From an uncultured Alphaproteobacteria bacterium (GTDB lineage: Bacteria > Pseudomonadota > Alphaproteobacteria > JAGOMX01): a DNA stretch of 64,000 nucleotides. Numbering within the stretch: position 1 is the stretch's first letter; each line of letters starts with the position of its first letter. Position numbers and translations under genes: made by a program. Under the pieces are notes generated by a model. The model did no database searches, was not told the DNA's origin, and worked only from the letters and a program-made list of their open reading frames with translations. The stretch lies in the NCBI GenBank assembly GCA_963780985.1, contig CAWAEF010000015.1, positions 6,839 through 70,838 on the forward strand, in the 5' to 3' direction. Shown piece after piece: positions 6,975 to 55,508 of the stretch.

Positions 6975-7058
6975 GTAACAACTCACAGGCACGTCATCTG
7001 CGTGCGAAGGCCGATGCCCGGCTTTCGCAAGTAGCTAGCGCAATGCCTGAGTTGTTAC
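6975..7058 (+). repeat. Palindromic element family B, copy B1 (short form, variant centre)
   Basis: GTAACAACTCACAGGCACGTCATCTGCGTGCGAAGG...CTTTCGCAAGTAGCTAGCGCAATGCCTGAGTTGTTAC. It ends 21 nt before the trxB ATG. Confidence 0.9.
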
Positions 7059-7079
7059 GAACATTATGGTGGATTAAAT

Positions 7080-8027
7080 ATGACGCAAACAATCAAAGCT
7101 AAGGTACTTATTATCGGATCGGGTCCAGCAGGTTACACTGCGGCCATTTATGCGGCCAGAGCAAATCTGCAGCCGATTATTGTTCAAGGCATGGAGCCCG
7201 GTGGTCAGCTTATGACGACGACGGATGTGGAAAACTACCCTGGGTTCAGTCAGATTATCCAGGGCCCCTTCCTCATGGAAGAAATGAAGACCCAGGCGGA
7301 AAGCGTGGGCACGAAAATCCTGTTTGATATGATTACAAAAGTGGACTTTAGCAAGAAGCCTTTTACTTGTCATGGCCAGGACGGGGATATTTACGAAGCA
7401 GAAGCGGTTATTATTGCAACGGGTGCGCAAGCCATCTGGTTGGGAAATGAAAGCGAGCAGAAGTTCCGGGGCTTTGGTGTTTCCGGTTGTGCGACTTGCG
7501 ATGGATTTTTCTTCCGTGGGAAAGAAGTGATGGTCATCGGAGGCGGTGATACGGCCGGGGAAGATGCTTTATACATGACCCATTTCGCGACCAAAGTTTA
7601 CCTGGTTCATCGCCGCGATCAACTGCGGGCGGAAAAGATACTGCAAGACCGTTTGTTCGCAAACCCTAAGATTGAGATTATATGGGATTCGGTTCTGAAT
7701 GAAGTTATTGGAACAGAAAATCCCAAAGCAGTCACCGGTGTGCGTATTGAAAATGTCAAAACTAAAGAAACGCGGGAGATCGCCGTGGACGGTGTATTTA
7801 TCGCCATTGGTCACAAGCCAGCGACGGAAGTGTTTCAAGGCATTATCGATACCGATGAGGCCGGCTATATTAAATGTGCGCCAGGGTCGGTTAAGACAAA
7901 TATACCTGGTGTGTTTGCGGCTGGTGATGTGCAGGATAAAGTATACCGCCAGGCGATTACCGCGGCCGGTCAGGGCTGTATGGCAGCGCTTGATGTGGAG
8001 AAATATCTGGCAGAAGAGGGATCATGA
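7080..8027 (+). CDS. trxB: Thioredoxin-disulfide reductase
   Basis: GSGPAG FAD motif, CATCDG redox centre, GGGDTA NADPH motif. Confidence 0.95.
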   Translation: MTQTIKAKVLIIGSGPAGYTAAIYAARANLQPIIVQGMEPGGQLMTTTDVENYPGFSQIIQGPFLMEEMKTQAESVGTKILFDMITKVDFSKKPFTCHGQDGDIYEAEAVIIATGAQAIWLGNESEQKFRGFGVSGCATCDGFFFRGKEVMVIGGGDTAGEDALYMTHFATKVYLVHRRDQLRAEKILQDRLFANPKIEIIWDSVLNEVIGTENPKAVTGVRIENVKTKETREIAVDGVFIAIGHKPATEVFQGIIDTDEAGYIKCAPGSVKTNIPGVFAAGDVQDKVYRQAITAAGQGCMAALDVEKYLAEEGS

Positions 8028-9016
8028 TGACTGAAGCGTCCGTTCTATTTGAAAAGCAAGATGGTGGCGGTTGGATAACACTGAACCGTCCCCATGCTTT
8101 AAATGCCCTTAACTTAGAGATGGTTCAGGCTATCACTGAGAAATTGATTCAGTGGGAAGCGGATGATGATGTGAACTATGTGGTGATCCAGGGGAGCGGG
8201 CGTGGTTTTTGTGCGGGTGGTGATCTGCGGGCGGTTTACGAGGCCATTCAGAATGGTAATAGTGATGCTGCTGTTGAATTCTTCAAGGTTGAATATCACC
8301 TAAACTTGATGATTCACAACTATTCAAAGCCTTATATATCCTTGCTGCCTGGTATTACTATGGGTGGGGGTATGGGGCTTTCTATTCATGGTACCTATCG
8401 GGTGGTCTCGGAAAATTCGGTTATGGCTATGCCGGAAACTGCTATTGGGTTATTTCCCGATGTGGGGGCAGCCTGGTTTCTGAATCGTTGCCCAGGTAAG
8501 TCTGGCTTGTATGTGGCGCTGACTTCGGCACGGATTAATTACCTGTCGGCGCTCTATATGGGGCTTGCGACTCATTATGTGCCTTTGGCGGGTTTGGACG
8601 GATTAATAGAGGCGATTCGGGAGAGTCGTGGACAGAACTTGGCGCAAGTGCTGGAGACTCATCAGCAGAGGCCTGAGGGAAGATCTGTGATTCAGGAAGA
8701 GCAAAGTCTTATTGATGGCTATTTTAACCAGAATTCGATTGAAGAGGTATTTCAGGCACTGGCATCCAGCAATTCGATTTTTGCGGCCACTAATCTGGAG
8801 GCTTTAAAGTTGAGATCGCCTTTGAGTTTGAGGGCTGCGTTTGGTTATTTAAAGCGGGCCGAGAATATGAGTATTGAGGACGTCCTGGAGCAGGATTTGG
8901 AATTTGCACGTGCATGCATACAAGCGGATGATCTCTACGAAGGCATCCGGGCGACGCTCATTGATAAGGATCTGAAGCCAGTGTGGAAGAGCGAGGCGAT
9001 CGTTATTTCTTTGTAG
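8024..9016 (+). CDS. Enoyl-CoA hydratase/isomerase family, 3-hydroxyisobutyryl-CoA hydrolase-like
   Basis: FCAGGDLRAV and GITMGGGMGLS..MPETAIGLFPDVG motifs. Confidence 0.8.
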   Translation: MMTEASVLFEKQDGGGWITLNRPHALNALNLEMVQAITEKLIQWEADDDVNYVVIQGSGRGFCAGGDLRAVYEAIQNGNSDAAVEFFKVEYHLNLMIHNYSKPYISLLPGITMGGGMGLSIHGTYRVVSENSVMAMPETAIGLFPDVGAAWFLNRCPGKSGLYVALTSARINYLSALYMGLATHYVPLAGLDGLIEAIRESRGQNLAQVLETHQQRPEGRSVIQEEQSLIDGYFNQNSIEEVFQALASSNSIFAATNLEALKLRSPLSLRAAFGYLKRAENMSIEDVLEQDLEFARACIQADDLYEGIRATLIDKDLKPVWKSEAIVISL

Positions 9017-9050
9017 CTATTCATCGAATGGTGAAGGGATGTTACAATCT

Positions 9051-9184
9051 CCCAGCTTGCCTCCCCCGGACACGCGGTGGTCCAGCGCAAGATGTGTCGC
9101 GTAGCGACTCTGTCGTTCTATTGGGAGCTGCTACGCAGCACATTTTAAGAGCTGGCCCACCGCGTGTCCGGGGGAAGCAGCTGG
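9051..9184. repeat. Palindromic element family A, copy A2
   Basis: CCCAGCTTGCCTCCCCCGGACACGCGGTGGTCCAGCGCAAGATGTGTCGCGTAGCG ... GCTGCTACGCAGCACATTTTAAGAGCTGGCCCACCGCGTGTCCGGGGGAAGCAGCTGG. Confidence 0.85.
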
Positions 9185-9291
9185 TGATGCCATACTAACC
9201 CCTCTATCATCTTGGCTCTATGTTACATTTCTCTTTACTAATTTCGCTATGCTAGGTATTTTGAAACAACTATTTTGCAAAGGATTTGGAA

Positions 9292-9960
9292 ATGGATAAA
9301 CGTTCTGATGATCTGATCCACGAAGTTGAAGAGCAACTGAAGTGGGAGCGTATTGAAGCGATCTCAAAAGAATATGGTACTTACATTGTCGGTTTTATTG
9401 TGGCGATCATTCTCCTGGTTGGGGGATATGAATATTGGGGTCATTCCACGGTCAAGCACCAGGAAGCCTTGTCTGAAGTTTATACAGATGCCCTACAGCT
9501 CATGGGTAAAGGGCAGACAACAGAGGCCCTTGAAAAGCTCAAAACGATCAAGGATGACAGCACTGGATATAGCATGCTGGCTCGATTTGTGTCTGCATCG
9601 GTCTTGCTGGATAATCCTGAAACAAGGCCTCAGGCCATAGAACTTTATCGAGACATGGTGAAAACCGGCTCCCTTGATCGCCGTTATCGCACCCTTGCGA
9701 TTATCTATTTGGTGCAAGCTGAGCTAGATACGGCTGATCCTGCGGAATTGGGTAAGCTTCTTGAGGAAGCATCCATCGGCACCAACATGTGGCCTGATAC
9801 GACGGCTGAACTGTCTGCCCTGGTTGCCTTGCGGAAGGGCGATATCGAAGGGGCCAAGAAGACGCTGGGCGAGCTGAAAGAGGATAAACAAGCCTCCCAA
9901 GGGATTCGCTTGCGCGCAAGAGCGCTGCTTGAACAGTTGCAACAACAACCGGCAAAGTGA
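9292..9960 (+). CDS. YfgM-like membrane-anchored TPR-like protein
   Basis: One N-terminal TM segment followed by a helical-repeat body. It sits in the conserved position upstream of bamB-der. Confidence 0.6.
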   Translation: MDKRSDDLIHEVEEQLKWERIEAISKEYGTYIVGFIVAIILLVGGYEYWGHSTVKHQEALSEVYTDALQLMGKGQTTEALEKLKTIKDDSTGYSMLARFVSASVLLDNPETRPQAIELYRDMVKTGSLDRRYRTLAIIYLVQAELDTADPAELGKLLEEASIGTNMWPDTTAELSALVALRKGDIEGAKKTLGELKEDKQASQGIRLRARALLEQLQQQPAK

Positions 9961-9971
9961 AGGTCTAAAAT

Positions 9972-11300
9972 ATGAAGCGTGGTATCCTGTTACTCCTACT
10001 GCCTGCTCTGATAGGCGGCTGTTCAAAACTTGAACAGATGGGTCTTATTAAGGGTGAGAACAAAGTCATGCCTGCGGGCGAGCGAGAGTCCGTCTTGCTG
10101 ACGGAAGAGACAACTGCGCCAGCGGCTGCTAAGGACGTAGGGCCTGTGGCATTGCCAAAAGCCGAGGTTGTGAAGCAATGGCACCAGGCAGGGCAGAATG
10201 CAGCCCATGCGGTTCCTCACGTGCAACTTGCAAAGGACATCAGTCCTGTTTGGGAAGCCCAGCTGAGTGCGTCGTCGAACCGTAATCAACGTCTGCTTTG
10301 TGAGCCGATCGTTGCGGATGGGTTGGTTATGCTTTACACGCCTGATAGCTATGTGACGGCTTATGACGCCTCTACCGGTCGTCATAAATGGTCATTCCAG
10401 ATCCAACCTGAAGAGTCTGCGGAAGCAAACTTGGGCGGCGGGCTCGCTTATAATGATGGAAAACTGTTTGTAACAACGCCATTTGCTGAGCTATTTGCTA
10501 TCGAAATGAAGTCAGGCAAGCCACTTTGGTCGGCCAAGACGAACAGCCCTTTACGTAGTGCGCCGACGGTCAGTGACGGTCGTGTATATGTGGTGTCCCT
10601 AGAGAATGAGCTAACGGTTTATGATGAAAATACCGGTAAATTGTTGTGGAAACACGAAGGCGTTTCAGAGAGTTCTGGGTTGCTGGGCGGTTGTACGCCG
10701 TCGGTACATAATGGCGTAGTCATTGTGCCTTATTCCTCGGGAGAGGTATATGCCATTCAGGCGGATAACGGTTATCCCCTTTGGACCGAGACTGTATCAT
10801 CAGCTTACAGAACTGATTCTATTGCTGGTATGCCCCATATCCGGGCTAAGCCTGTTATCAAGGACGGTGTGGCCTTTGTGGTCAGTCAAGCAGGTCGTTG
10901 CGCAGCTTTTGATGTGCGTGCGGGTGAGATGATCTGGAACCGCGACTTTGGCGGAGCGGAAACGCCTGTCGTTGCGGGGGATTCTCTGTTTATGGTGACC
11001 AATGATAACTTTGTGATCTGTTTGGATAAATCAACGGGCAAGATTCGTTGGACCAAAGCTTTACACAAATGGACCGATGAGTCCCAAAATAAGGGACGGA
11101 TTGTTTGGAATGGGCCAGTGCTTGCGGGATCGAGGTTATTCTTAACGGGCTCTCATGGCACACTGTTGGCGCTCGATGCTAAAGATGGATCTAAGGCTTA
11201 TGAACATACGGTATCCGGCAGCGTGGTGATTCCTCCGATTGCGGTGGATGGTACGGTGTACGTGGTAACTGAATCTGGATCCCTGGTAGCGTTTCGTTAG
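9972..11300 (+). CDS. bamB: Outer-membrane assembly lipoprotein BamB (PQQ-like beta-propeller)
   Basis: Lipobox LIGGCS and repeated beta-propeller blades (G.l.a.D..tGk..W). Lies upstream of der. Confidence 0.85.
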   Translation: MKRGILLLLLPALIGGCSKLEQMGLIKGENKVMPAGERESVLLTEETTAPAAAKDVGPVALPKAEVVKQWHQAGQNAAHAVPHVQLAKDISPVWEAQLSASSNRNQRLLCEPIVADGLVMLYTPDSYVTAYDASTGRHKWSFQIQPEESAEANLGGGLAYNDGKLFVTTPFAELFAIEMKSGKPLWSAKTNSPLRSAPTVSDGRVYVVSLENELTVYDENTGKLLWKHEGVSESSGLLGGCTPSVHNGVVIVPYSSGEVYAIQADNGYPLWTETVSSAYRTDSIAGMPHIRAKPVIKDGVAFVVSQAGRCAAFDVRAGEMIWNRDFGGAETPVVAGDSLFMVTNDNFVICLDKSTGKIRWTKALHKWTDESQNKGRIVWNGPVLAGSRLFLTGSHGTLLALDAKDGSKAYEHTVSGSVVIPPIAVDGTVYVVTESGSLVAFR

Positions 11301-11318
11301 AAAGTAGTATTTGGACTT

Positions 11319-12665
11319 ATGAGTAAAAAAGTAGCTATCGTTGGTCGCCCGAATGTGGGTAAATCCACTTTATTTAACCGTCTGGTGGGCAAGAAGCTTG
11401 CGTTGGTGCATGACTTGCCGGGTGTTACCCGGGATCGTCGTGAGCACCCCGCTAAGCTGGGTGACTTGCGTTTTGATATCATCGATACAGCCGGTTTAGA
11501 TGAAGGCGAGGAGGATGAGCTGTCGCTTGCCATCTGGAGCCAAACCCAGCGCGTATTTGATAATTGCGATGTGATCCTTTTTGTTCTTGATGCTATTGCG
11601 GGTCTTACCCGTCTTGATGAGCACTATGCGCAGATGGTCCGCCGTATTGGCAGGCCCGTTATTTGTGTGCTGAATAAAGCTGAACGGGGTCAGATCCATA
11701 ACGTCATCGGCGAAGCATCGGCCCTGGGCTTTGGTGAGGTTGTTGCAATCTCTGCGGAGCATGGCGAAGGTTTGGCGGATCTGTATCAGGCTTTGCAGCC
11801 TTATTTATCTGAATCTGAAGAGTCGGGTGTTGATGAACCCCTGGATGCGGAGGCTCCTCTCCAGTTGGCTATCGTTGGGCGGCCTAATGTGGGCAAATCG
11901 ACCCTTATCAATAAACTCATTAACGAAGATCGTTTGCTGACAGCGGATATGCCCGGGGTGACCCGAGATTCCATATCTGTGGATTGGTCGTATAATGGCC
12001 GGAAGATGAAGTTGATCGATACGGCCGGTATCCGCCGGCGTAGCAAGGTTGACTCTCAGCTGGAAAAGCTCTCGGTTGCGGATGCTCTGCGCGCTGTTGA
12101 TTTTGCGCATGTGGTGGTTTTGGTATTGGACCACGAGACGCCGTTGGCAAAGCAAGATGCTATCATCGCCAACAAAGTTATCGAAGAGGGCCGGGTTCTT
12201 ATCATTGCCATCAATAAGTGGGATTTAATTCCGAACAAGGAAGAGTATCTTAAGGACGTGTATCACACTTTGGGGCATGTGTTGCCACAGGTGAAGGGTA
12301 TTCCTTGTATCCCCATTTCTGCGAAGCTGGGTAAGAACCTCACCAAACTTTTGGATGAAGTGTTCACTATGTACGATCTGTGGAATCAGAGGATTCCTAC
12401 GGCCAAGCTGAATCAATGGCTGGCGCAGACTATATCCTACCACCCGCCGCCGGTATCGGGGCGCAATCGTATCAAGTTTAAGTACATGACCCAGATTAAA
12501 ACCAGGCCGCCGACTTTTGTGCTGTTTGTCAGCAAGCCTACGGAGGTGCCGGATAGTTATATGCGTTATCTGCAGAATACTTTGCGCCAGGATTTTAATC
12601 TTCCTGGGGTACCTTTGCGGATACTGGTTAAGGCGCAGGATAATCCTTATGCGGATAATGATTAG
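11319..12665 (+). CDS. der: Ribosome-associated GTPase Der/EngA
   Basis: Two G domains (GRPNVGKST twice; DTAG twice; NKxD) plus a KH-like C-terminus. Confidence 0.95.
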   Translation: MSKKVAIVGRPNVGKSTLFNRLVGKKLALVHDLPGVTRDRREHPAKLGDLRFDIIDTAGLDEGEEDELSLAIWSQTQRVFDNCDVILFVLDAIAGLTRLDEHYAQMVRRIGRPVICVLNKAERGQIHNVIGEASALGFGEVVAISAEHGEGLADLYQALQPYLSESEESGVDEPLDAEAPLQLAIVGRPNVGKSTLINKLINEDRLLTADMPGVTRDSISVDWSYNGRKMKLIDTAGIRRRSKVDSQLEKLSVADALRAVDFAHVVVLVLDHETPLAKQDAIIANKVIEEGRVLIIAINKWDLIPNKEEYLKDVYHTLGHVLPQVKGIPCIPISAKLGKNLTKLLDEVFTMYDLWNQRIPTAKLNQWLAQTISYHPPPVSGRNRIKFKYMTQIKTRPPTFVLFVSKPTEVPDSYMRYLQNTLRQDFNLPGVPLRILVKAQDNPYADND

Positions 12666-12707
12666 TTTGGTTTCTCCCTCAGGGGGTAAAGTTACCGATT
12701 CCTGCTA

Positions 12708-13874: not shown

Positions 13875-14026
13875 CACTCTCCTTCGATTTCTTGCTGCTT
13901 GCCTGGTTGGGACATATGGACACAATAGTTAGTATAGAAATAAGTGTGCATTTTTTCAATATTTTATAGATCACCTTGTAGGATCTATGCATACAAACGA
14001 AGTATATGAAGGAAAGCACGTACTTC

Positions 14027-14066
14027 CAGCTAGTCTCTCCTGGATGCGCAGGGGAGGCAAGATGGG
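14027..14066. repeat. Family A minimal copy A3 (core hairpin; degenerate outer arms about 13981-14103)
   Basis: CCAGCTAGTCTCTCCTGGATGCGCAGGGGAGGCAAGATGG. The right flank GTGCGTTTTTAATTTTCATGCGTAGGCCCTG matches the outer arms of A1. Confidence 0.6.
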
Positions 14067-14172
14067 GTTTCGTGCGTTTTTAATTTTCATGCGTAGGCCC
14101 TGAAACTCTTGACCGTTAACCTTTTTTTCTTTAGAAATATAGCTAAATGTCAAAGGGGGATGCTAAAAACAA

Positions 14173-15096: not shown

Positions 15097-15100
15097 CACG

Positions 15101-15127: not shown

Positions 15128-15145
15128 CTGATAGCTACTTAATGC

Positions 15146-16405: not shown

Positions 16406-16445
16406 CACCAGCTTGCCTCCCCTGCGAAAGCAGGGGGTCTTCGCT
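16406..16445. repeat. Family A half-copy A4
   Basis: CCACCAGCTTGCCTCCCCTGCGAAAGCAGGGGG matches the left arm of A1. No right arm is present. Confidence 0.5.
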
Positions 16446-30496: not shown

Positions 30497-30589
30497 GTAA
30501 CAACTTATCTAGCACGTCATCTACGTGCGAAAGCTTGCGCTCCGGTGCTTGACTTCCGCACGTAGTCAACGCACTACTTGAGTTGTTAA
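30497..30589 (+). repeat. Family B copy B3 (short form)
   Basis: It starts 2 nt after the OMP stop codon and is followed by a canonical terminator. Confidence 0.9.
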
Positions 30590-30602
30590 GTAAGATAAGT
30601 TT

Positions 30603-30632
30603 AAGCCGAGGAAACTGCGCCTCGGCTTTTTT
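30603..30632 (+). terminator. Rho-independent terminator
   Basis: AAGCCGAGG aaactgcg CCTCGGCTT followed by TTTT. Confidence 0.85.
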
Positions 30633-30716
30633 ACAAACTTCCATCAAATCCGCTGATTTGGGATTGACTTTCGGGCGCACATAAGCAGAGAATAGCGGAA
30701 AAACCAGGAGACGCTC

Positions 30717-31256
30717 GTGACGGTAATTCCCTATATCCACGCTTCATGTGTAGAAAAAGATGGCCGAGGTATTTTGTTGAAGGGGCATTCGGGAGCGGGG
30801 AAATCCTCCTTTGCGCTGGCTCTGATTAATCGGGGATTTACCCTTGTGGCCGATGACCAGGTTCTCGCATCTGCCAAAGATGATCGATTGCTGGCGGAGC
30901 CAGCGGATGCCCTCAAGGGTCTATTAGAGGTCCGAGGTGTCGGTCTTCTCCGAATGCGCTATTCACCGTCTTGTCAGATACAGGTCCTGATTGATCTGGT
31001 GCCAGGATTCAGGTCTGAAAGGTTGCCATCTCCAAAAACTCAATTGCTGCATGGACTTCCCATACGATCTTTTCAAATAAATCCCATGGATCCCAGAAGC
31101 ATAGAAAAAGTCCTGGTGTTGTTTCACCCGGACTTTCAAGGTTTCTATGAGTCAGAATCCGGAAATCAGATTTTAGAATCCAGAATCCAGAATCTAGAAT
31201 CCAGATCAGAATCCAGATCAGAATCCAGATTCCGTATTCTGGATTCTGGATTCTAG
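30717..31256 (+). CDS. hprK: Truncated HPr kinase/phosphorylase (C-terminal domain only, alphaproteobacterial type)
   Basis: P-loop GHSGAGKSS and LEVRGVG. The last ~36 codons are read through repeat C2. Confidence 0.8.
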   Translation: MTVIPYIHASCVEKDGRGILLKGHSGAGKSSFALALINRGFTLVADDQVLASAKDDRLLAEPADALKGLLEVRGVGLLRMRYSPSCQIQVLIDLVPGFRSERLPSPKTQLLHGLPIRSFQINPMDPRSIEKVLVLFHPDFQGFYESESGNQILESRIQNLESRSESRSESRFRILDSGF

Positions 31257-31270
31257 ACTCTGGATTCTGT
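31149..31270. repeat. Heptad-repeat hairpin family C, copy C2
   Basis: Tandem GAATCCA units face ATTCTGG units. It occupies the whole hprK/flgH convergent gap and the hprK 3-prime end. Confidence 0.9.
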
Positions 31271-32017
31271 TTAGAACGGCGATACTATATCCAGTATCTG
31301 CTGACCCCATGGGGCTTGCTGGATGTCGCTGAGCTGGCCACGGCCGCCGTAGGCAATTCTTGCCTCAGCTATTTTTTCATAAGAGATCGTGTTCTCTGCC
31401 AAAATGTCTTGTGGCCTTACTACGCCCGTGATCAGCATCTCTCTTACCTCGTTGTTCACCCGGATTTCTTGCCGTCCAACTATAACCAAATTACCATTAG
31501 GTAGAACTTGGGTGACGGTTGCAGCGAGTTTGAGGTCTAATGATTCTTCTCTTTTAATGGCACCTGTTGCTGTATAAGTTGGGTTGCTATCAAAGTTGAT
31601 AAGGTTCTTAGGATCCACCGCCTTGGGAAAGATCTTTGACAGCTTTGATTCATAGCCGAGTAAATTTGGGGCATCGATATGCTCAGTGGTTTGCCGTGTT
31701 GTGTCGGTTTCATTTTTCCAGTCGGCTTTTTCTTTAAACTTGATGAGAATAGTCAGAATGTCGCCCACATCTTGAGCGCGTTGATCCTTAAAGAATGAAC
31801 GGGCTCCTGTTCTCCACAATGAATTTTCTGCTTGCTCCTCGACCATGGGCCTTGGCATGGGCATCGTGACTTTATTGTATTCCTCACTGGACTCAGGGTT
31901 ACGTATCTGCGTTAATTGAGGCACTTGTCCCACTTGACCCAGTCTTTCTAGGCCACTACAGCCACTCAAAGCTAGGAAGGTCAGGGCTAATAAAGGTATG
32001 GATAAAATTCTGAGCAT
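31271..32017 (-). CDS. flgH: Flagellar L-ring lipoprotein FlgH
   Basis: Lipobox LSGCSG and the conserved FlgH core (GDILTILI.., ITGVVRP.DI). Confidence 0.95.
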   Translation of the reverse strand: MLRILSIPLLALTFLALSGCSGLERLGQVGQVPQLTQIRNPESSEEYNKVTMPMPRPMVEEQAENSLWRTGARSFFKDQRAQDVGDILTILIKFKEKADWKNETDTTRQTTEHIDAPNLLGYESKLSKIFPKAVDPKNLINFDSNPTYTATGAIKREESLDLKLAATVTQVLPNGNLVIVGRQEIRVNNEVREMLITGVVRPQDILAENTISYEKIAEARIAYGGRGQLSDIQQAPWGQQILDIVSPF

Positions 32018-34694: not shown

Positions 34695-34787
34695 GTAACA
34701 ACTCAGATAGCATGTCATCTAAGTGCGAAAGCCTGCTCTCCGGTGCTCGGCTTTCACAGGTAGCTAACGAACTATCTGAGTTGTTAA
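34695..34787 (+). repeat. Family B copy B4 (short form)
   Basis: Lies in the flgF/fliL divergent region and ends 30 nt before the fliL ATG. Confidence 0.9.
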
Positions 34788-34817
34788 GAAAAAGAAGTAT
34801 GTAGATGGGGTAACTCA

Positions 34818-36892: not shown

Positions 36893-37909
36893 ATGAGCAA
36901 GCGCACCTTTTCAATCCTTTCTCGATTGTTGACGCCGGCTTTCGTCAAGCTCAGATTGCTGCAGGTGTTGCTGGTTTGCGCCGTCCTCTTGGTATTTGTA
37001 AAACTCGAGAAGGTTTACAGTCTTTCTGCAAGTATTTTCGTGCATTCTGCTAAGGCGGGAGAAACGCCTGATAAAAAGCCGACTCAGCCAGCTGCGCCAG
37101 CTAAACCTGAAACTGCACCATCACCAACGCCTGCACCTGCTGCTTCTGCTGCGCCTGCCGCGCCTGCCGCGCCTGAAAAACCGGCCGCGGCTACTCCAGC
37201 AAAATCGGAATTTCCTACGGAAAAACCTAAGGAAGGTTTTAAAGCAGAAAGTTTTGATATTCTTGAGTTGAGTCCTGAGCAAGTGGAAGTGCTTAGGACG
37301 CTCTCAAAGCGACATCGGGATTTGGTGCAAAGGGAGCGTTCTATTTCTGAGAGAGAGGCCACCTTGCAGGCCATAGAACAGCGACTGGATCAAAAGACCG
37401 GCGAGCTGAAGAAAATTCAGGAATACCTGCAGCAATTGTTGGGACAAAAGACCGAGAAAGAGCAAGAAGCTCTTAAGAAGCTCGTCATTGTTTATGAAAA
37501 GATGAAGCCAGCAGAAGCAGCGACTATCCTGCAAGGGTTGGACATGGAAACCCTTCTCAATATCATGGATTCCATGAAAGATGGAAAGGTATCTGCGATT
37601 GTCGCTAAAATGGAGCCCAAGCAGGCTCGTGTGCTGACCATTGAGTTGGCCCAGCGTCGCAAAAAGCTTGAAGAAAGAATGAAGATGGAGCATGATGCCA
37701 ATGCGGCAAGTCCTGAGCTTACTCCGGCTGCAGCCCCCGCGGGGGTAGATCCTGCTCACCCGGCAGCACAGGATCCAGGAAAGCCAGTGCCATCGGCACA
37801 GCCAAATCCAGCAGCTCCCGCAGGACCTCCAGCAGGAGCTCCAGCGGCACCTCCAGCAGCAGCTCCGGCTAATGCTCAAGATTCGGCCTCGCAGCCTAAG
37901 AAGTCTTAG
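36893..37909 (+). CDS. MotE/FlbB-like flagellar protein (MgtE_N-like domain) with Pro/Ala-rich flanks
   Basis: KMKPAEAATILQGLDMETLLNIMDSMKDGKVSAIVAKMEPKQA is an MgtE-N-type motif. Located in the flagellar cluster. Confidence 0.65.
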   Translation: MSKRTFSILSRLLTPAFVKLRLLQVLLVCAVLLVFVKLEKVYSLSASIFVHSAKAGETPDKKPTQPAAPAKPETAPSPTPAPAASAAPAAPAAPEKPAAATPAKSEFPTEKPKEGFKAESFDILELSPEQVEVLRTLSKRHRDLVQRERSISEREATLQAIEQRLDQKTGELKKIQEYLQQLLGQKTEKEQEALKKLVIVYEKMKPAEAATILQGLDMETLLNIMDSMKDGKVSAIVAKMEPKQARVLTIELAQRRKKLEERMKMEHDANAASPELTPAAAPAGVDPAHPAAQDPGKPVPSAQPNPAAPAGPPAGAPAAPPAAAPANAQDSASQPKKS

Positions 37910-41865: not shown

Positions 41866-41890
41866 CAGGATATCCTGATAGTATACTAAA

Positions 41891-42021
41891 ACAGAATCCA
41901 GAATCCAGAAACCAGAAACCAGAAACCAGAGCTACTTGCTCGGAACTGTGGCGCTGGATTCCGGCTTCTGGATTCTGGATTCTGGATTCTGGCTTCTGGT
42001 TTCTGGATTCCGGATTCTGTT
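41891..42021. repeat. Heptad-repeat hairpin family C, copy C3
   Basis: CAGAATC x2 and CAGAAAC x3 face nine CTGGATT/CTGGCTT/CTGGTTT units. Lies between phaC and hisC. Confidence 0.9.
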
Positions 42022-42049
42022 TCGGTAATCGTTCTAGGGAAAGTACATC

Positions 42050-43179: not shown

Positions 43180-43303
43180 GTAACTCTTCAGCTAGCACAC
43201 CATCTGCGTCGTCAGATCTGCGCTCCGGCGCTCACGTATGAAGAATGCGCTCCGCTCCGGTGCTCGATCTTCCTAGCATCTGGCGAACTATCTGAAGAGT
43301 TAC
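43180..43303 (+). repeat. Family B copy B5 (long form, divergent, covarying termini)
   Basis: GTAACTCTTCAG...CTGAAGAGTTAC. The core CGCTCCGG(C/T)GCTC is duplicated. Confidence 0.85.
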
Positions 43304-43449
43304 CCGTAACTACTTGGGTAGTTACTAACTTATTACTGTGGATAAAGAATGACACCTATTCAGCAGAGCTCATTGCAGCGGATTATGTTTGTTATGACAC
43401 TCATCCTATTCTTATGGCTGTGCGTTTGGTGGGCGTTATAGGGCAGGGC

Positions 43450-48667: not shown

Positions 48668-48850
48668 GATTCTCTCCTTTTAAATATCGCCCTTCAAAAT
48701 GAAGTGTGCGGGTTTTAGGTAATGAATTGCCCTTTTCTACATAATGGCTTAAATGTATTAAATAATTCTTGCCTTGATGTTTCTCTTTTCATTAAATTTA
48801 CAGCTAGTTTAAATAGATAAATGATTTATGGGGTTCTTTTGCAAAACCCG

Positions 48851-48930
48851 TGGGGGTAGATATAATCTTCCGCCTCCGGCAGAGGTTATCCTGAACGGAC
48901 GACCGGAGTTATTCGCTCCGGTATATTTGC
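48851..48930 (+). promoter_or_regulatory. Structured 5-prime leader of the terC-family gene; possible Mn2+ (yybP-ykoY-like) riboswitch or attenuator
   Basis: Three segments CTCCGG (48874-79), CCGGAG (48903-08) and CTCCGG (48916-21) allow mutually exclusive hairpins. There is only loose resemblance to the yybP-ykoY conserved blocks. Confidence 0.3.
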
Positions 48931-48998
48931 ATGTGAGTCCTTCCAAACGATACCCTCTCCATGCTATTCTCTAACGAATCAACAATAAGAATGAAAAC

Positions 48999-49919: not shown

Positions 49920-50680
49920 CCGTAGGTAAACAGGATTTTCCCGTGCTCCTTCAGCCATCGACGGTGGTGCTTAAATTGAGGGCACAGATCCTTCACGATG
50001 GACCAGAATGCCGGGCTGTGATTCATTTCGATCAGATGTGCGACCTCGTGGGCACAAACGTATTCAGCAACTTCAAGGCCAGCAAAGACCAGTCGCCATG
50101 AATAGGCTAGGTTGCCGTCTCTTGAACAGCTTCCCCAACGACTGGATGTATCTTTAATATTGATACTGGTGACCTGCTTGCCAATTTGAGCAGCAAATTT
50201 CTGGCTGGTCTCAGTGACGTATTTGTAGATGTGTGAACGTAACCAATCCTTTGTGAGGCCGGGTACGATGATGGGGTCAAAGCCTTTTACTTCTATGACC
50301 TGATTGTCTGCGGTGACGCTGGGTGATTCTTGGTATGAATACCGTATGAGGTGAGGGACCCCCAGGATGGGGATCTGATTGCCCTGGACTAAAGGCGTGT
50401 TTTGCTCTAGATGGGAACAGACCTTGAGCAACCAGCCCCTGGATTTTTCGATGAAGGCCATGATCTCGTGGGGCATGGCGTGGGAGGGTCTGGTTAAGTA
50501 AATCATGTTTTGGGAAGGATGAAGCCTAAGAGAGAGTCTCTTGGATCGTGGATTCTCACGTACCTGAATATTGATGCTCAAATCTGAAATTTGAAGGGTG
50601 ATATCCTGTCGGTTCATTGCAGATCTTCCGATGACCATTGCCTTTTTCCTAAACTCAGGTAAAGTGAGTGTGTATTTCAA
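49916..50680 (-). CDS. YgjP-like (DUF45/M48-related) metal-dependent hydrolase
   Basis: SRWGSCS motif and HEVAHLIEMNHS (HExxH). Confidence 0.8.
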   Translation of the reverse strand: MKYTLTLPEFRKKAMVIGRSAMNRQDITLQISDLSINIQVRENPRSKRLSLRLHPSQNMIYLTRPSHAMPHEIMAFIEKSRGWLLKVCSHLEQNTPLVQGNQIPILGVPHLIRYSYQESPSVTADNQVIEVKGFDPIIVPGLTKDWLRSHIYKYVTETSQKFAAQIGKQVTSINIKDTSSRWGSCSRDGNLAYSWRLVFAGLEVAEYVCAHEVAHLIEMNHSPAFWSIVKDLCPQFKHHRRWLKEHGKILFTYG

Positions 50681-50710
50681 ACATCGACGCCAAAAAACAA
50701 TAAGAAAGGG

Positions 50711-52963
50711 TTGTTGATGCTTACCAAGCTTTTAGAGCGTTTTCGCATTGAACACAAGTTAATTCCTACCGGGGAGGGTAAGGAATTGCTGCTGTTATTG
50801 CGCAATTCATCGCACCTCAAACAGCTTTGGGGTTTGGTGCTCGCCAATATTATTGCCATTGGCCTTCTGGGTGGAATTTTGGTGCTTATGAGCAGTGAGA
50901 CTGCCTATTTAGTCCTTTCCGTCGCAATAACATTTTGCGCGGCAAGCGTGGTTACCATTTCGGGGTATACATGCTGGTACTTGGTGACCTTGAATCGACA
51001 GCTCAGTAATGTCTTAGAGGGGGCCAATGATTTTTATCAAGGCATTATGCTGACTGATAAGCGGGGATTCATCCAATACTTCAATAATAAAATGCTACAG
51101 TCTTTTGGTCATCTGGACGAGAATCAGCTAGATACATTTACAGAATCCTACATACATCCTGACAGTGTTGCCGATTTCTTGAAGCTGCGTAAGGCAGCGC
51201 GTTCTAATGAGGAAGCTACGGCAGCTATATTGGTGGGCAAGTCGTCTGTAGCGCCTGAATTATGGCATGTGAGAGTGATGCCACTGAAGTACAGTAGTGG
51301 CTTTGTCTTTTGGATTTTTGATTCGCATGCTGGCGATGTGGCCGATCAAAATGAATCAACGCTGTCCTCAGCCTACACGAATTTCCGAACCATATTTGAA
51401 CAAGCACCCATGGGGATTGTGGTTCTTGATCATGAGGGAAAAATAAAAGCAACCAATAGGTTCTTTCAGGAGGAATTATGTAAGATGCCGCTGCAACCGC
51501 AGCAGTCTTTCTTTGATCTCCTGCATCCCAATAGCCGTCAAGGGGCGATGGATAACATTGAAAGAATTATGGCTGGCGAGATGATTTCTATGCCGCTGGA
51601 GCTCCAGTTTATCGATGATAAGTCCGCACAGATTTCTGCCTTTGCCAGCAATATAGAGGATAAAGAAGTTGGGGGCGACCCTAAGCCCAAATCTAAAGGC
51701 GTGATCTTACATTTCTTCGACAGCTCCCAGCAGAAAGTCCTCGCGGTTCAACTGGCTCAGTCACAGAAAATGCAGGCGATGGGTCAGCTGGCGGGGGGCA
51801 TTGCCCATGACTTTAACAACTTGCTGACGGCAATTATTGGTTTTTGTGATCTCCTGCTGCTGCGCCATTCTCCGGGCGATCAGTCCTTCACGGATATTAT
51901 GCAAATCAAGCAAAATTCAAACCGAGCCGCCAATCTTGTCCGACAATTGTTGGCGTTTTCTAAACAACAGACTCTACAGCCACAGATGTTGAATGTGAGC
52001 GAAATATTGACGGAAGTTTCTGTGTTGCTACAGCGACTCGTGGGCGTGAATGTCGATCTCAACATTGTTCACGGACGAGACCTGGGCTTTATTAAGGTCG
52101 ATAAAGGTCAGTTCGAGCAGGTTATCATTAACCTCGTGGTCAATGCCCGGGATGCTATGGATGAAAAGGGGCTTATCACCATCAAGACTTTCAATAGTAC
52201 CTTTGCGGAAGAATTTCACATCCATCACGATGTCATACCTGTGGGCACCTATGTGGTTATGGAGGTGGAAGATACCGGCAGCGGCATTTCAAAGGAAAAT
52301 ATGACGCGTATTTTTGATCCATTCTTTTCCACGAAAGAGCTTGGTCGAGGCACGGGCCTGGGGTTGTCTACCGTCTACGGTATCGTTAAACAAACAGGCG
52401 GGTACATTATCGTAGATTCAGAAGTCCATAAAGGCACAAAGTTTAAGGTGCTATTCCCCTATTACGATCCTGCAGAGCTTCTGGCGGAAGCTGAAAAATC
52501 GAAAAAGCAGGAGTACTCAGGAGATCTGACGGGTAGTGGTTCCATCCTTCTTGTTGAGGATGAAGATGCTGTTCGACTGTTCGGCGCCAGAGCCTTGCGG
52601 GACAAAGGATACCGCGTCGTAGAAGCTCGGGATGGTCTTGAGGCTCTTAACTACCTTGAATCGATTACCGATAATCCCGAAAATAAGGTCGATCTCCTGA
52701 TTACGGACGTGGTTATGCCGGTGATGGATGGTGTTGAGCTCGTCAGGCAGGTTCATCAGATACTGCCTGATCTTTCTATAATTTATATATCTGGCTATGC
52801 GGAAGATTCTTTCCGGCAAAAGGTTGGGGAAGAGTCCAATATACATTTCTTACCAAAACCCTTTAGTTTGAAAGAATTAGCGCGTAAAGTGAAGGATGTG
52901 ATGACGGAACATGGCGGCCACAAGGGTGCCGGCGACGAGCTTCACATTAAACAACTCAGCTAG
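50711..52963 (+). CDS. cckA: Hybrid sensor histidine kinase/response regulator, CckA-like
   Basis: Two N-terminal TM segments, two PAS-like regions, H-box GGIAHDFNNLLTAI, an HATPase domain, and a C-terminal REC domain (LLVEDEDAVR..DLLITDVVMP). The symbol is tentative. Confidence 0.6.
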   Translation: MLMLTKLLERFRIEHKLIPTGEGKELLLLLRNSSHLKQLWGLVLANIIAIGLLGGILVLMSSETAYLVLSVAITFCAASVVTISGYTCWYLVTLNRQLSNVLEGANDFYQGIMLTDKRGFIQYFNNKMLQSFGHLDENQLDTFTESYIHPDSVADFLKLRKAARSNEEATAAILVGKSSVAPELWHVRVMPLKYSSGFVFWIFDSHAGDVADQNESTLSSAYTNFRTIFEQAPMGIVVLDHEGKIKATNRFFQEELCKMPLQPQQSFFDLLHPNSRQGAMDNIERIMAGEMISMPLELQFIDDKSAQISAFASNIEDKEVGGDPKPKSKGVILHFFDSSQQKVLAVQLAQSQKMQAMGQLAGGIAHDFNNLLTAIIGFCDLLLLRHSPGDQSFTDIMQIKQNSNRAANLVRQLLAFSKQQTLQPQMLNVSEILTEVSVLLQRLVGVNVDLNIVHGRDLGFIKVDKGQFEQVIINLVVNARDAMDEKGLITIKTFNSTFAEEFHIHHDVIPVGTYVVMEVEDTGSGISKENMTRIFDPFFSTKELGRGTGLGLSTVYGIVKQTGGYIIVDSEVHKGTKFKVLFPYYDPAELLAEAEKSKKQEYSGDLTGSGSILLVEDEDAVRLFGARALRDKGYRVVEARDGLEALNYLESITDNPENKVDLLITDVVMPVMDGVELVRQVHQILPDLSIIYISGYAEDSFRQKVGEESNIHFLPKPFSLKELARKVKDVMTEHGGHKGAGDELHIKQLS

Positions 52964-52995
52964 CACGTAAGTAACGCACTATCTAAGTTGTTAAG
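52948..52995 (+). repeat. Family B copy B6 (minimal 48-bp form)
   Basis: TAAACAACTCAGCTAGCACGTAAGTAACGCACTATCTAAGTTGTTAAG. It overlaps the last codons and the TAG stop of the kinase gene. Confidence 0.85.
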
Positions 52996-53031
52996 AAAAA
53001 TAAGATGTATGTTTAAAGGGAAGGATTTTTA

Positions 53032-53235
53032 ATGCACACCGTTCTAAGTATTATGCTCTATCTGGCCTTGGCGGCAACAGTGGTTACTCTCGTGATCGGG
53101 GTTACCGGTATGCTCAGAGCGCAGCGTGAAGGCGATCAAGAAAAAAGCAACAAATTGATGCGCATGAGAGTTCTCTTTCAGGCCATTGCATTAATTATAG
53201 TTGCACTCTTGTTGATTACGTCCCGTCACGGATAA
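53032..53235 (+). CDS. Twin-transmembrane-helix small protein (HIG1-domain type)
   Basis: 67 aa with two TM helices and SNKLMRMRVLFQ between them. Confidence 0.75.
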   Translation: MHTVLSIMLYLALAATVVTLVIGVTGMLRAQREGDQEKSNKLMRMRVLFQAIALIIVALLLITSRHG

Positions 53236-53296
53236 AATTTGTTGGCAAGAAGGTCTTATATTGATAAAACATCAATGAGTTATTAAAGGGAACATT

Positions 53297-53551
53297 ATGA
53301 TGGAAAACGTTTTACCTATCCAGAATCCAGCGGCCATGACTTTTGAAGTGGCCATGCGTGAGTTAGAAACAATTGTTCGTAGGCTGGAAGAAGGTAAGGT
53401 CGATCTAGAAGATGCCATCGCTCTTTATGAGAGGGGTGACATGTTGCGTGCTTTTTGCGATACTAAACTGAAAGAAGCCCAAATGCGGGTGGAAAAAATC
53501 GTTGATAATAACACTGGGGATAAAACAACAGTACCTTTCGACGCTAGATAA
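53297..53551 (+). CDS. xseB: Exodeoxyribonuclease VII small subunit
   Basis: FEVAMRELETIVRRLEEGKVDLEDAIALYERG. Confidence 0.9.
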   Translation: MMENVLPIQNPAAMTFEVAMRELETIVRRLEEGKVDLEDAIALYERGDMLRAFCDTKLKEAQMRVEKIVDNNTGDKTTVPFDAR

Positions 53552-53673
53552 CAACTCATCTAGCACGTCATCTACGTGCGAAAGTCTGCGCTCCGGTGCT
53601 CACGTACCCAAAAGTACGCTCCGCTCCGGTGCTCAACTTTCACACGTAGCTAATGCACTAGCTGAGTTGTTAA
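53549..53673 (+). repeat. Family B copy B7 (long form)
   Basis: Its first three nt are the xseB TAA stop. It ends 24 nt before the yggT ATG. Confidence 0.9.
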
Positions 53674-53697
53674 GAAAAAGAAACTGGGAGAGCTAAA

Positions 53698-53997
53698 ATG
53701 GACGTCATTTTAATACCACTATTTAACCTGATCATGACTGTACTCGTTATGTATTTCTGGATCGTAATTCTGTCGGTTGTCATGAGTTGGTTGCTTGTGT
53801 TTGGGGTCGTGAATACCGGCAATCAGTTCGTATCAACTTTGAGCGACTTTTTTTACAGGGTGACTGAGCCCGCATTAAGACCAATACGCAGGATTCTGCC
53901 CAATTTGGGGGGGCTAGACATTTCTCCCCTGGTACTGTTGTTAATCATTCATTTTTTGGAGCAGTTCCTAGAACTGCTGTTTAGGAAGCTAATATAA
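53698..53997 (+). CDS. yggT: YggT-family membrane protein
   Basis: 99 aa with two TM segments and the LRPIRRILP..GGLDISPL motif. Confidence 0.85.
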   Translation: MDVILIPLFNLIMTVLVMYFWIVILSVVMSWLLVFGVVNTGNQFVSTLSDFFYRVTEPALRPIRRILPNLGGLDISPLVLLLIIHFLEQFLELLFRKLI

Positions 53998-54017
53998 TTG
54001 GAGTTCTTTAAAACACA

Positions 54018-54914
54018 ATGGCACATTTAATAGATGGACGAGCTTGTGCGCGGCAGATCAAGCATTTGATCGCGCAGGAGCTCGCCGAGCTTAGTCAGTT
54101 TGGTAAACCAGGGTTAGCAATAGTTCAGATCGCTGATAATCCAGCGAGTAAAGTATACGTGCGCGCTAAGATTAAGCAGGCAGAAGAAGTGGGCTTGTCG
54201 GCTCACACCTTACATTTTCCTGAATCCGTGACCCAAGAGCATGTATTAGCCCTCATTGATACACTCAATGGGGATGCAAGCATTAACGGCATTATTGTGC
54301 AGTTGCCTCTACCGGCGCATTTGGATCCCTTGGTGGTTGTCAATCGCATCAGGTCTGATAAGGATGTAGATGGATTGTCTGTTATCAACGCAGGACGTCT
54401 TTCTATGGGGCTTGATGGTTTTGTGCCATGTACGCCTCTTGGCTGCTTGATATTGTTGCAGCGTCTATTCGAAAGTCTTGAGGGTAAACACGCCGCTATT
54501 ATTGGCCGATCCAATTTAGTAGGAAAACCCTTGGCCCAGTTATTGCTGAGCAAAAACTGCACAGTCTCTATTCTCCATTCTAAAACAGTTCATCCCGAGG
54601 AATTAACCAGGCAAGCAGATATCGTCATTTCGGCCGTGGGCAAGCCTCAGCTTGTTACGGGGGATTGGATAAAACCTGGTGCTGTCGTATTGGACGTAGG
54701 TATAAACCGCTTGGGTGAAAATATGTTAGTGGGTGATGTGGATTTCAATTCCGTGGGGCCCATTGCCGGCTACCTGACGCCAGTGCCCGGTGGGGTGGGG
54801 CCTATGACAGTTGCCTGCCTATTATTAAATACGGTTCTCGCCATGGCTAAGCAAAACAATCTGAAACTGAAATACCTACCTTCAAACCCAGTGGATGGTG
54901 TGCTATGTCACTAA
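54018..54914 (+). CDS. folD: Bifunctional methylenetetrahydrofolate dehydrogenase/cyclohydrolase
   Basis: SKVYVRAK, GIIVQLPLP, GRSNLVGKP, PGGVGPMT. Confidence 0.95.
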   Translation: MAHLIDGRACARQIKHLIAQELAELSQFGKPGLAIVQIADNPASKVYVRAKIKQAEEVGLSAHTLHFPESVTQEHVLALIDTLNGDASINGIIVQLPLPAHLDPLVVVNRIRSDKDVDGLSVINAGRLSMGLDGFVPCTPLGCLILLQRLFESLEGKHAAIIGRSNLVGKPLAQLLLSKNCTVSILHSKTVHPEELTRQADIVISAVGKPQLVTGDWIKPGAVVLDVGINRLGENMLVGDVDFNSVGPIAGYLTPVPGGVGPMTVACLLLNTVLAMAKQNNLKLKYLPSNPVDGVLCH

Positions 54915-55375
54915 TCACGCCTGATGAACTTAAAATCTTATGTGATAAGAGTAAGGGGCGTTTATTAGGCCTGGACGTGGGTTCTAAAAATGTTGGACTA
55001 GCACTGTCGGATAAAGGTCATATTATTGCAACGCCTTACTATGTGCTTGAGCGATTAGGTTGGAAGAAAGATTTGCCATACTTGGTTAACTTGATCCATG
55101 CGCAGGATGTTGTTGCATGTGTGGTAGGCTGGCCCATAAATATGGATGGAAGCATAGGTGAACGATGTGCTTATGTCATGGAATTTTATGAAAAGATGCA
55201 AGAGGCCATCGATATCCCTGTCCTTTTTTGGGACGAGCGTCTGTCAACCATTGCGGCCGAGCGCGTTCTTCTGGAAGCGGATATGTCCCGCAAAAGACGA
55301 AGTGAAGTGGTGGATAAGATGGCTGCCAGCTACATCTTGCAAGGAGTATTGGACAGACTACGCAAGATGAGTTAA
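54905..55375 (+). CDS. ruvX: Putative pre-16S rRNA nuclease / Holliday junction resolvase-like YqgF
   Basis: GLDVGSKNVGLALSD and DERLST motifs. Confidence 0.9.
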   Translation: MSLITPDELKILCDKSKGRLLGLDVGSKNVGLALSDKGHIIATPYYVLERLGWKKDLPYLVNLIHAQDVVACVVGWPINMDGSIGERCAYVMEFYEKMQEAIDIPVLFWDERLSTIAAERVLLEADMSRKRRSEVVDKMAASYILQGVLDRLRKMS

Positions 55376-55384
55376 ATTACCCAA

Positions 55385-55508
55385 GAACAACTCATCTAGC
55401 ACGTCATCTACGTGCGAAAGCCTGCGCTCCGGTGCTCACGTACCCAAAAGTACGCTCCGCTCCGGTGCTCGGCTTTCGCACGTAGCTAACGCACTATCTG
55501 AGTTGTTA
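55385..55508 (+). repeat. Family B copy B8 (long form)
   Basis: It starts 9 nt after the ruvX stop and ends about 27-33 nt before the trhO start. Confidence 0.9.

Follow-up and report, generated by a model that had tools for sequence, protein, structure and literature searches.

Small palindromic repeats are common in bacteria, and their movement, as well as the question of function versus mere tolerance of their position, is usually left unsettled. Repetitive extragenic palindromes (REPs), including the CGTC-tagged REPs of Alphaproteobacteria, are described in one survey as lying mainly in convergent or unidirectional gaps between open reading frames (ORFs), near the 3' end of the upstream gene and at variable distances from downstream ORFs, and as sometimes supplying stop codons (Di Nocera et al. 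2013, PMC3733652). ERIC elements of Yersinia are co-transcribed and act in an orientation-dependent manner (De Gregorio et al. 2005, summarized in PMC2229807), and the RNA of NEMIS elements is cut by RNase III (PMC2229807). We analyzed a 64,000-nt stretch of DNA, here called the window, from the 97,125-bp contig CAWAEF010000015.1 (positions 6,839 to 70,838, assembly GCA_963780985.1) of an uncultured alphaproteobacterium, in which a palindromic element occurs eight times, always on the same strand. The element probably represents a young, lineage-specific, non-autonomous mobile palindromic family of the kind that includes REPs, BIMEs, and miniature inverted-repeat transposable elements (MITEs), and one that is polar and co-transcribed. 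An RNA-level effect of the element is plausible.

A profile hidden Markov model (run with --max) and a covariance model identified exactly eight palindrome copies in the window, all on the + strand, and no ninth copy was found by either model on either window strand. Together with a direct check of the sequence, these searches confirmed the positions and strand given in an earlier prediction made from the sequence alone (the original prediction), along with its size classes of 48, 84-93, and 124-126 nt. The sequence AACAACTC occurred 15 times in the window compared with 2.0 expected occurrences, and none of 100 shuffles equaled that number. The insert said to distinguish the long form by duplicating CGCTCCGGTGCTC is present and measures 32/33 nt. 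The predicted spacings also held, both between the upstream stop codon and the element (3, 2, 5, and 9 nt, and two overlaps) and between the element and the start codon that follows (21, 21, 30, 36, 24, and 27 nt), and Pfam supported the names of the neighboring genes. Other structural details needed revision. Most copies have the proposed common termini, but the ends of copy 5 differ (GTAACTCTTC...GAAGAGTTAC) and are mutually compensated, and copies 3 and 6 have one terminal mismatch each. The 13-nt arm blocks proposed to be unpaired are predicted to pair in part (3+3 bp). They were proposed as a means of scoring orientation, and orientation can be scored since the sense scores were approximately twice the antisense scores. 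The purine tract noted after the copies is real, but it belongs to the element as a conserved 3' tail and is not flanking sequence.

All 10 copies that lie between same-strand genes were co-oriented with those genes (two-sided binomial p 0.002), so that the predicted orientation bias extends beyond the window. The informative copies were window copies 2, 3, 5, 6, 7, and 8 and those at L119b, L120, L127, and L128, four loci on other metagenomic contigs. Copies at divergent or convergent junctions were left out as uninformative, because either orientation matches one neighbor there. The window contains 11 convergent, 11 divergent, 31 +/+, and 8 -/- junctions, of which 0, 2, 6, and 0, respectively, are occupied by the element. 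It is true, as the original prediction had it, that no copy lies in a block of minus-strand genes, but with 8 -/- junctions versus 31 +/+ junctions this is not significant alone. Only 1 of 21 copies overall was at a convergent junction, and most copies abut the downstream start codon.

The predicted bias in position held as well. Four of the eight window copies lie in unidirectional spacers of 50 nt or less (element removed), which account for 3.7% of the intergenic DNA (binomial P = 1e-4). Occupied contexts include nuoF-nuoG, dnaX-ybaB-recR, RNase H-rbfA, and xseB-yggT. In at least four cases (copies 6 and 7, L119b, and L128), the upstream gene ends at a stop codon contributed by the element itself, and the host Shine-Dalgarno sequence is kept intact just past the tail in most cases.

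Additional copies were obtained by scanning JGI metagenomes with a 24-nt pattern, which returned 14 loci, all from Ga0182030/31. Three of these overlap the window at 98-99% identity, and the others are further parts of the same or very close genomes. In total, at least 12 further non-redundant copies were found on other metagenomic contigs of the same species; a rough estimate from the flanks of these loci and the window is tens of copies per genome. The species is also represented in metagenome ERR11630400. Protein neighbors of the window identify the host as an uncultured alphaproteobacterium; the closest named matches to its Der protein were 'MAG: Alphaproteobacteria bacterium' (81% identity), and cultured genera such as Emcibacter, together with a 'Candidatus Paracaedibacter' metagenome-assembled genome, reached approximately 53-55%. 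A scan of genome contigs with a 17-nt pattern gave chance matches only, in high-GC genomes (L002-L118), the pattern being too short. The open-frame translation of the element, used to look for spurious ORFs over other copies, had no match among 5.8 billion proteins, and two scans of viral contigs and a BLAST search of phages gave no match to the element.

Comparison of filled and empty alleles indicated that copies were inserted recently. The dnaX-ybaB junction lacks copy 2 in three conspecific assemblies (ENA ERZ27248494, JGI 3300014838, and Logan SRR6960546; loci L139, L140, and L141) that are 96-98.5% identical to the window, and dnaX and ybaB are spaced by 28 nt there. Window positions 18237-18369 (133 nt) stand where the empty allele has 11 nt (AGGACTAATCG), and neither a target-site duplication nor any other direct repeat was found at this filled/empty pair. 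A model involving duplication of a TA or TAA target, which had been suggested by the TA beside ACAACTC...GAGTTGT and by the stop codons supplied by the element, fails at this empty site. The ENA strain that lacks copy 2 does carry copies 3, 4, 6, 7, and 8. In a fully syntenic sister species (Logan SRR22387871; Der 87% and FolD 78% identical), all four junctions examined are empty, with spacings of 15 nt for kinase-HIG1, 21 nt for xseB-yggT, and 36 nt for ruvX-trhO and with a trxB leader that has no element; xseB is one codon longer in that species. No copy was found in approximately 50 kb of non-redundant sequence of relatives (approximately 84 kb of loci searched, including GCA_041738135.1). 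The polymorphism of copy 2, the empty junctions of the sister species, and the lack of copies in relatives point to a recent expansion specific to this species, and these comparisons indicate that the family is young and mobile. The original prediction had considered a neutral MITE less likely, which was not borne out, since the copies are recent mobile DNA. As to a related autonomous insertion sequence (IS), neither the window nor approximately 150 kb of loci contains a second pair of the termini spaced as in an IS.

Two contigs near the ruvX-trhO junction deserve mention. L123 (Ga0182031_1237424) differs from the window by dozens of 1-nt indels, including some inside trhO. We rejected its interpretation as an approximately 93% identical relative that has kept copy 8; since nearly all of the differences are 1-nt indels, it represents the same species in an error-rich assembly and has no bearing on the conservation of copies. 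On a contig of a relative (JGI 3300075153, carrying P0124), the ruvX-trhO gap is 120 nt compared with 36 nt in L147, and another insert may sit there.

The element is a mosaic of an apex module, family-specific arms, and a one-sided, purine-rich 3' tail. The apex has the sequence TGCGCTCCGGTGCTC-ACGTACCCAAAAGTACG-CTCCGCTCCGGTGCTC. The apex module of the long form (TGCGCTCCGGTGCTCACGTACCCAAAAGTACGCTCCGCTCCGGTGCTCGG) occupies positions 55423..55472 (+ strand) in copy 8, and the same module is found in copies 2, 5, and 7. The short form is without 32-33 nt of the apex between direct repeats, and copy 6 is without everything between its two GCACGT repeats; judged by these missing segments, the short forms look like deletion derivatives of the long form. 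The left arm (AACAACTCATCTAGCACGTCATCTACGTGCGAAAGCC) and the right arm, its imperfect complement, close a hairpin of 90-125 nt, and the left arm by itself can form a local hairpin, GCACG-TCATCTA-CGTGC. CGTC followed by AT in the left arm and GTAG in the right arm may correspond to REP-type tags. Terminal inverted repeats are present (GTAACAACTC / GAGTTGTTAC in subtype A and GTAACTCTTCAG / CTGAAGAGTTAC in subtype B) and are simply the outer end of the palindrome that runs through the entire element.

The tail is found on the 3' side only and is either short (AAGAAAAAGAAG) or long (continuing with GTRAATGTTTACAA). It reads GAAAAAGAAG, extended in some copies by GTRAATGTTTACAA, and the conserved portion reaches up to approximately 30 nt (GAAAAAGAAGGTRAATGTTTACAA). 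We regard the tail as part of the element because the empty allele lacks it and because it also occurs at a convergent junction, where there is no downstream gene. Subtype B, represented by window copy 5 and by the copies at L121 and L132, has different, mutually complementary termini. A small hairpin, GTAACTRCC..GGYAGTTAC, comes after each of these copies and differs between them by compensated changes (window positions 43306-43325, and downstream of the L121 and L132 copies), so that the motif GTAAC/GTTAC occurs four times per subtype B element. A tandem composite was observed at L122 33-258 (the same locus as L126), where a full long copy is followed after 5 nt by a second copy without the left terminus. 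In this second copy, the right arm is an exact complement of the left-arm block (GTAGATGACG), which erases the usual asymmetry.

Comparison with described repeats revealed partial likeness to several families. The original prediction had likened the element in concept to REP/BIME, Correia/NEMIS, and Rickettsia RPE elements; the first two comparisons are apt, and the third is not, as no copy lies in frame inside a gene. Like REP, BIME, and REPIN sequences, the copies are intergenic imperfect palindromes of mosaic, modular construction that fall into size classes, often abut the upstream gene or give its stop codon, have no target-site duplication, and presumably are transcribed and form hairpins in the RNA. 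The CGTC and GTAG tetranucleotides in the arms add to this likeness (PMC3733652). REP units, however, are 20-40 nt long and often form inverted doublets that make a larger hairpin, whereas the hairpins of the window family are 90-125 nt long. In addition, REPs favor convergent and unidirectional 3' ends, whereas the window family occupies 0 of 11 convergent junctions, adjoins the downstream start codon, and has a one-sided tail and strict polarity. ERIC (IRU) elements are likewise imperfect palindromes of approximately 125 nt that are co-transcribed, have an orientation-dependent effect on mRNA, and vary in size through internal deletions and insertions, but they occur in both orientations, without a purine tail, and in another class of host. 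The element had no match in 5,426 E. coli genomes, which carry both ERIC and REP.

Correia/NEMIS elements share with the window family the two size classes that differ by an internal segment, the location near genes, transcription, and, in the case of the RNA, long hairpins that are cut by RNase III. They are characterized by 26-bp terminal inverted repeats, a TA target-site duplication, an IHF site, and outward promoters, whereas the window element shows no duplication at the one precise empty site and no consistent predicted promoter. Correia elements are also symmetric, hence without polarity. RPEs resemble the window element in their alphaproteobacterial hosts and in being palindromic repeats of approximately 100-150 nt, and one frame is open through the whole window element. 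RPEs are typically in frame inside genes, in contrast to the window copies, none of which is in a gene apart from 16 coding nt of copy 6. The attC sites of integrons were also considered and rejected, because the termini are unlike the RYYYAAC / GTTRRRY cores and the flanks are core genes that are syntenic with element-free relatives. At gathering thresholds, no Rfam family matched the window, and a weak EFASI match (22.7 bits versus a gathering score of 51.2, E = 0.18) is noise.

The apex module has relatives in other Alphaproteobacteria. A BLAST search of plasmids and chromids with copy 8 gave matches confined to the apex, at 80-94% identity, and these correspond to unannotated intergenic palindromes of Phyllobacterium, Sphingobium, Ensifer, Agrobacterium, Rhizobium, Bosea, and Novosphingobium. 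When the Phyllobacterium element was used as the query, relatives of approximately 110 nt were found in 30 records, with one to four per replicon (for example, L149 1460-1590 in Phyllobacterium and L150 1470-1600 in Sphingobium). This unannotated palindrome family is approximately 80% identical between Hyphomicrobiales and Sphingomonadales, and the Phyllobacterium and Sphingobium relatives had no Rfam match. Likeness to the window family, which includes palindromes of Shinella and Aminobacter in addition to the genera named above, is limited to the central 50 nt, with the GCTCCGGTGCTC direct repeat and the ACGTAC..GTACG tip included. The relatives are also intergenic, often inside ABC-transporter or etf operons, but their outer arms differ and they have no purine tail. 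Among 13 annotated contexts, 4 were co-oriented, 3 anti-oriented, 5 convergent, and 1 divergent. The occurrence of relatives in both orientations indicates that polarity goes with the derived arms and tail and not with the apex. As no Sinorhizobium meliloti replicon was matched, the relatives are probably not RIME1 or RIME2, and the shared apex points to an unnamed palindrome family conserved across alphaproteobacterial orders.

Each full copy forms a single long hairpin, with energies of -40 to -64 kcal/mol and z-scores of -5 to -10, and the fold of the 48-nt copy 6 is weaker (-11.7 kcal/mol, z -2.5). Pairing was analyzed in an alignment of 19 sequences with the minimum free energy fold of copy 8 as the reference structure. 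In this alignment 94% of cells were paired, and 10 pairs had changed on both sides, compared with 3.2 +/- 1.4 in shuffled alignments (0 of 500 shuffles). The changes on both sides indicate that the palindrome is actively maintained, and they would be equally expected from a DNA hairpin needed for mobility. Selection on the fold of the sense RNA should make G.U more frequent than A.C among non-Watson-Crick pairs. No such excess was present in the sense strand (12 G.U versus 24 A.C cells, corresponding to approximately 10 versus 11 independent events), and this test thus gives no support to selection on the sense RNA fold.

Because copies lie inside dnaX-ybaB, nuoF-nuoG, and other tight junctions, it is nearly unavoidable that the element is co-transcribed with its flanking genes. 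In a small-RNA study of Thalassospira (PMC6413936), more than one locus has sense-strand reads that match the apex module, a weak indication that hairpins of this type are transcribed. What follows the hairpin is an A/G-rich tail without a U-tract, and no terminator-like site was called at any element. These features, together with the copy between nuoF and nuoG and the copy inside dnaX-ybaB-recR, ruled out an intrinsic terminator; termination is unlikely also because essential operons need their downstream genes to be expressed. We rejected the idea of an outward promoter in the tail, since a TATAAT after copy 8 lacks a suitably spaced -35 sequence and scans identified no consistent site. The interpretation given in the original prediction is thus partly supported, as regards orientation bias, position bias, and co-transcription; termination is unlikely, and the G.U/A.C test was flat.

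The consequences of orientation for the downstream ribosome-binding site were examined by in silico inversion. Nine natural junctions and variants of them were folded, and the unpaired probability of the downstream -14..+3 region was calculated. Its mean was 0.47 for the natural junctions; inverting the whole element lowered it to 0.29, and deleting the element gave 0.43. The natural orientation exceeded the inverted one in eight of nine cases. When the hairpin alone was inverted and the tail was kept between hairpin and ribosome-binding site, the mean was 0.44. In these predictions, the tail acts as an insulating spacer for the downstream ribosome-binding site. In the predicted folds of inverted elements, the Shine-Dalgarno region becomes paired with the C/U-rich complement of the tail or with the hairpin base, which would provide a selective reason for polarity alongside a possible mechanistic one.

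Under the reading that we favor, that of a young, mobile, and polar family, the apex module would have been inherited from the palindrome family that is widespread in Alphaproteobacteria. Copies would land or survive only in the gap between stop codon and ribosome-binding site or in a 5' leader, in the sense orientation, and would be transcribed within the mRNA without terminating transcription. A stable stem-loop followed by an unstructured A/G-rich spacer would then keep the downstream ribosome-binding site single-stranded. Polarity would follow from the asymmetric tail, in that an inverted copy would place the hairpin at the ribosome-binding site and a C/U-rich, anti-Shine-Dalgarno-like stretch upstream and would be purged; alternatively, the tail may help to guide insertion beside purine-rich Shine-Dalgarno regions. 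Any effect on the mRNA would be a by-product of insertion, possibly through a protective 3' hairpin for the upstream cistron or a substrate for a double-strand RNase. Within this reading, the repeat family, its structure, recent mobility, polarity, short-spacer preference, and lack of a terminator signature are shown by the data, and co-transcription, insulation of the ribosome-binding site by the tail, and RNA-level consequences are deduced. If the polarity and the gap preference hold genome-wide, they would show that a selfish element can invade operons, even essential ones, without breaking them, and could reveal an insertion mechanism that reads gene-expression signals. The coexistence of filled and empty alleles of one operon junction in one population constitutes a natural experiment, aided by a sister species that is empty at all examined sites and by an asymmetric tail that eases the scoring of orientation.

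Several points weigh against this reading. Its polarity is based on a small sample of 10 informative copies, L128 alone separates the direction of transcription from that of replication, and the additional loci were retrieved by a 24-nt left-arm pattern and thus sample one subfamily. The accessibility argument is a thermodynamic prediction alone, and copy 8 shows the opposite effect of inversion. Unlike at a classical MITE, the sole precise empty site is an 11-nt replacement without target-site duplication. No transposase, autonomous partner, or RAYT gene was seen in the approximately 220 kb available, in which no systematic transposase scan was made. Finally, the insertions are no older than the divergence of 98% identical strains and have had little time to be purged, which favors a mechanistic orientation bias over pure selection. 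Such a bias could take the form of an orientation-specific, signal-guided insertion that recognizes the gap between stop codon and Shine-Dalgarno sequence in transcribed operons and replaces approximately one helical turn of DNA without duplication. The gap could be recognized by the purine tail, if it pairs with Shine-Dalgarno-like DNA, or in a step that is coupled to transcription or mediated by RNA. We regard this mechanism as rather unlikely; if true, the element would be a mobile 'intercistronic spacer cassette' equipped with a stop codon and leader of its own, and it would move by a chemistry that has not been described for MITEs or REPs of bacteria.

A domesticated RNA element, the view taken in the original prediction, is also unlikely. 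It would act as a barrier to 3' exonucleases, a site for RNase III or RNase E, or an attenuator that sets the expression of neighboring cistrons, with selection keeping its polarity and position. The strict sense orientation, intercistronic placement, very stable folds, and compensatory changes would all be expected of such an element, and there are precedents in the orientation-dependent Yersinia ERIC and the RNase III-cut NEMIS RNA (PMC2229807) as well as the Thalassospira reads on the apex sense strand (PMC6413936). This explanation is opposed by the flat G.U/A.C comparison and by the functionally unrelated flanking genes. In addition, the copies are near-identical, which reflects a recent burst and not long-term conservation, and the genes function without the element, given that the sister species is empty at every examined junction and copy 2 is polymorphic. 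Polarity might instead be set by replication, if the element moved as single-stranded DNA by means of an HUH/RAYT- or IS200/IS605-like enzyme into the lagging-strand template and if co-orientation merely reflected the bias of genes toward the leading strand. GC skew at third codon positions (GC3 skew), calculated on the coding strand of each gene, was +0.183 for + genes and -0.179 for - genes of the window and is clearly replication-driven. All window copies are on the G-rich (leading) strand, which holds 65% of coding bases, and the element is on the G-rich strand at five of six other loci with readable GC3 skew. The missing target-site duplication is as in HUH transposition, the asymmetric bulges of an imperfect palindrome are what such enzymes read, and CGTC and GTAG are present in the arms (compare PMC3733652). 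At L128, however, the element is co-oriented with 11 genes at a GC3 skew of -0.166, that is, in the lagging orientation, so that orientation there follows transcription and not the replication strand. Co-orientation of 10 of 10 copies has p ~0.01-0.04 given 65-72% leading-strand genes, no Y1/HUH transposase gene was seen (without a systematic search), and the tight placement beside ribosome-binding sites is left unexplained; we consider replication-set polarity improbable, and more so than a domesticated RNA element. The least probable of these rivals is a role at the DNA level, as recombination sites or, as has been suggested for E. coli REP/BIME, as binding or cleavage sites for gyrase, IHF, another nucleoid protein, or a recombinase. 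The apex mismatches kept across alphaproteobacterial orders, the fourfold GTAAC/GTTAC of subtype B, and wobble pairs without strand asymmetry would suit such a role, but it does not predict strict orientation to transcription or placement at ribosome-binding sites, the copies are recent insertions missing from close relatives, and attC cores (RYYYAAC / GTTRRRY) are not present in the element, which is flanked by syntenic core genes.

The eight window copies, all on the + strand, differ in form and tail. Copy 1 (6975..7075) is a short form with an 84-nt hairpin and a diverged tail, CGAACATTATGGTGGATT, in the trxB 5' leader, ending 4 nt before the start codon; its site is empty in the sister species (L135), with approximately 11 nt (GATAAAGGCAA) replaced. 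Copy 2 (18237..18369), whose boundaries were set by comparison of the filled and empty alleles, is a long form with a short tail and separates the dnaX stop codon from the ribosome-binding site of ybaB. Copy 3 (30497..30601), a short form of 93 nt with a short tail, lies in the 3' untranslated region of a FadL/Toluene_X outer-membrane protein gene, is directly followed by a separate canonical intrinsic terminator at 30606-30635, and was also found in strain L144. Copy 4 (34695..34801) is a short form with a short tail in the flgG/fliL divergent region, where the hairpin core (to 34787) is 30 nt and the tail end 16 nt from the fliL start. Copy 5 (43180..43325) is the long, subtype B form with compensated termini GTAACTCTTCAG/CTGAAGAGTTAC, located between aminotransferase and ABC ATPase genes, and its second small hairpin at 43306-43325 is GTAACTAC..GTAGTTAC. 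Copy 6 (52948..53015) is the 48-nt internal-deletion derivative with a long tail; a hybrid histidine kinase gene runs 16 nt into it and ends at its TAG, and HIG1 is downstream. Copy 7 (53549..53686), a long form with a short tail, has as its first TAA the xseB stop codon, and the yggT start is 11 nt beyond its tail. Copy 8 (55385..55520), a long form with a diverged tail, is between ruvX and trhO.

Other repeats are also present in the window. A second, unrelated palindromic family occurs at 3790-3960 and 9035-9205, with a fragment at 16412-16444, and elsewhere at L124 210-376, L128 8159-8314, and L128 10183-10351. Its members are near-perfect hairpins of approximately 150 nt (approximately -100 kcal/mol) with units CCCCTGCGAAAGCAGGGG / CCCCGCGAAGGCGGGG, and the differences between the two window copies are compensated. 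Arrays of 7-nt units arranged as palindromes, (CCAGAAA)n then (TTTCTGG)n, were found at 18702-18892, 31139-31272, and 41885-42033; one of them separates ybaB from recR, shortly downstream of copy 2. Two different genes contain short in-frame coding repeats (37809-37880 and 57432-57585) that have periods of 9 and 12 nt and are rich in Ala, Pro, and Lys. Just upstream of copy 1 is a small ORF on the - strand (6785-6970, 61 codons as called). It is probably a real small gene; both the ORF and a promoter-like block at approximately 6895-6935 are conserved in the sister species (L135).

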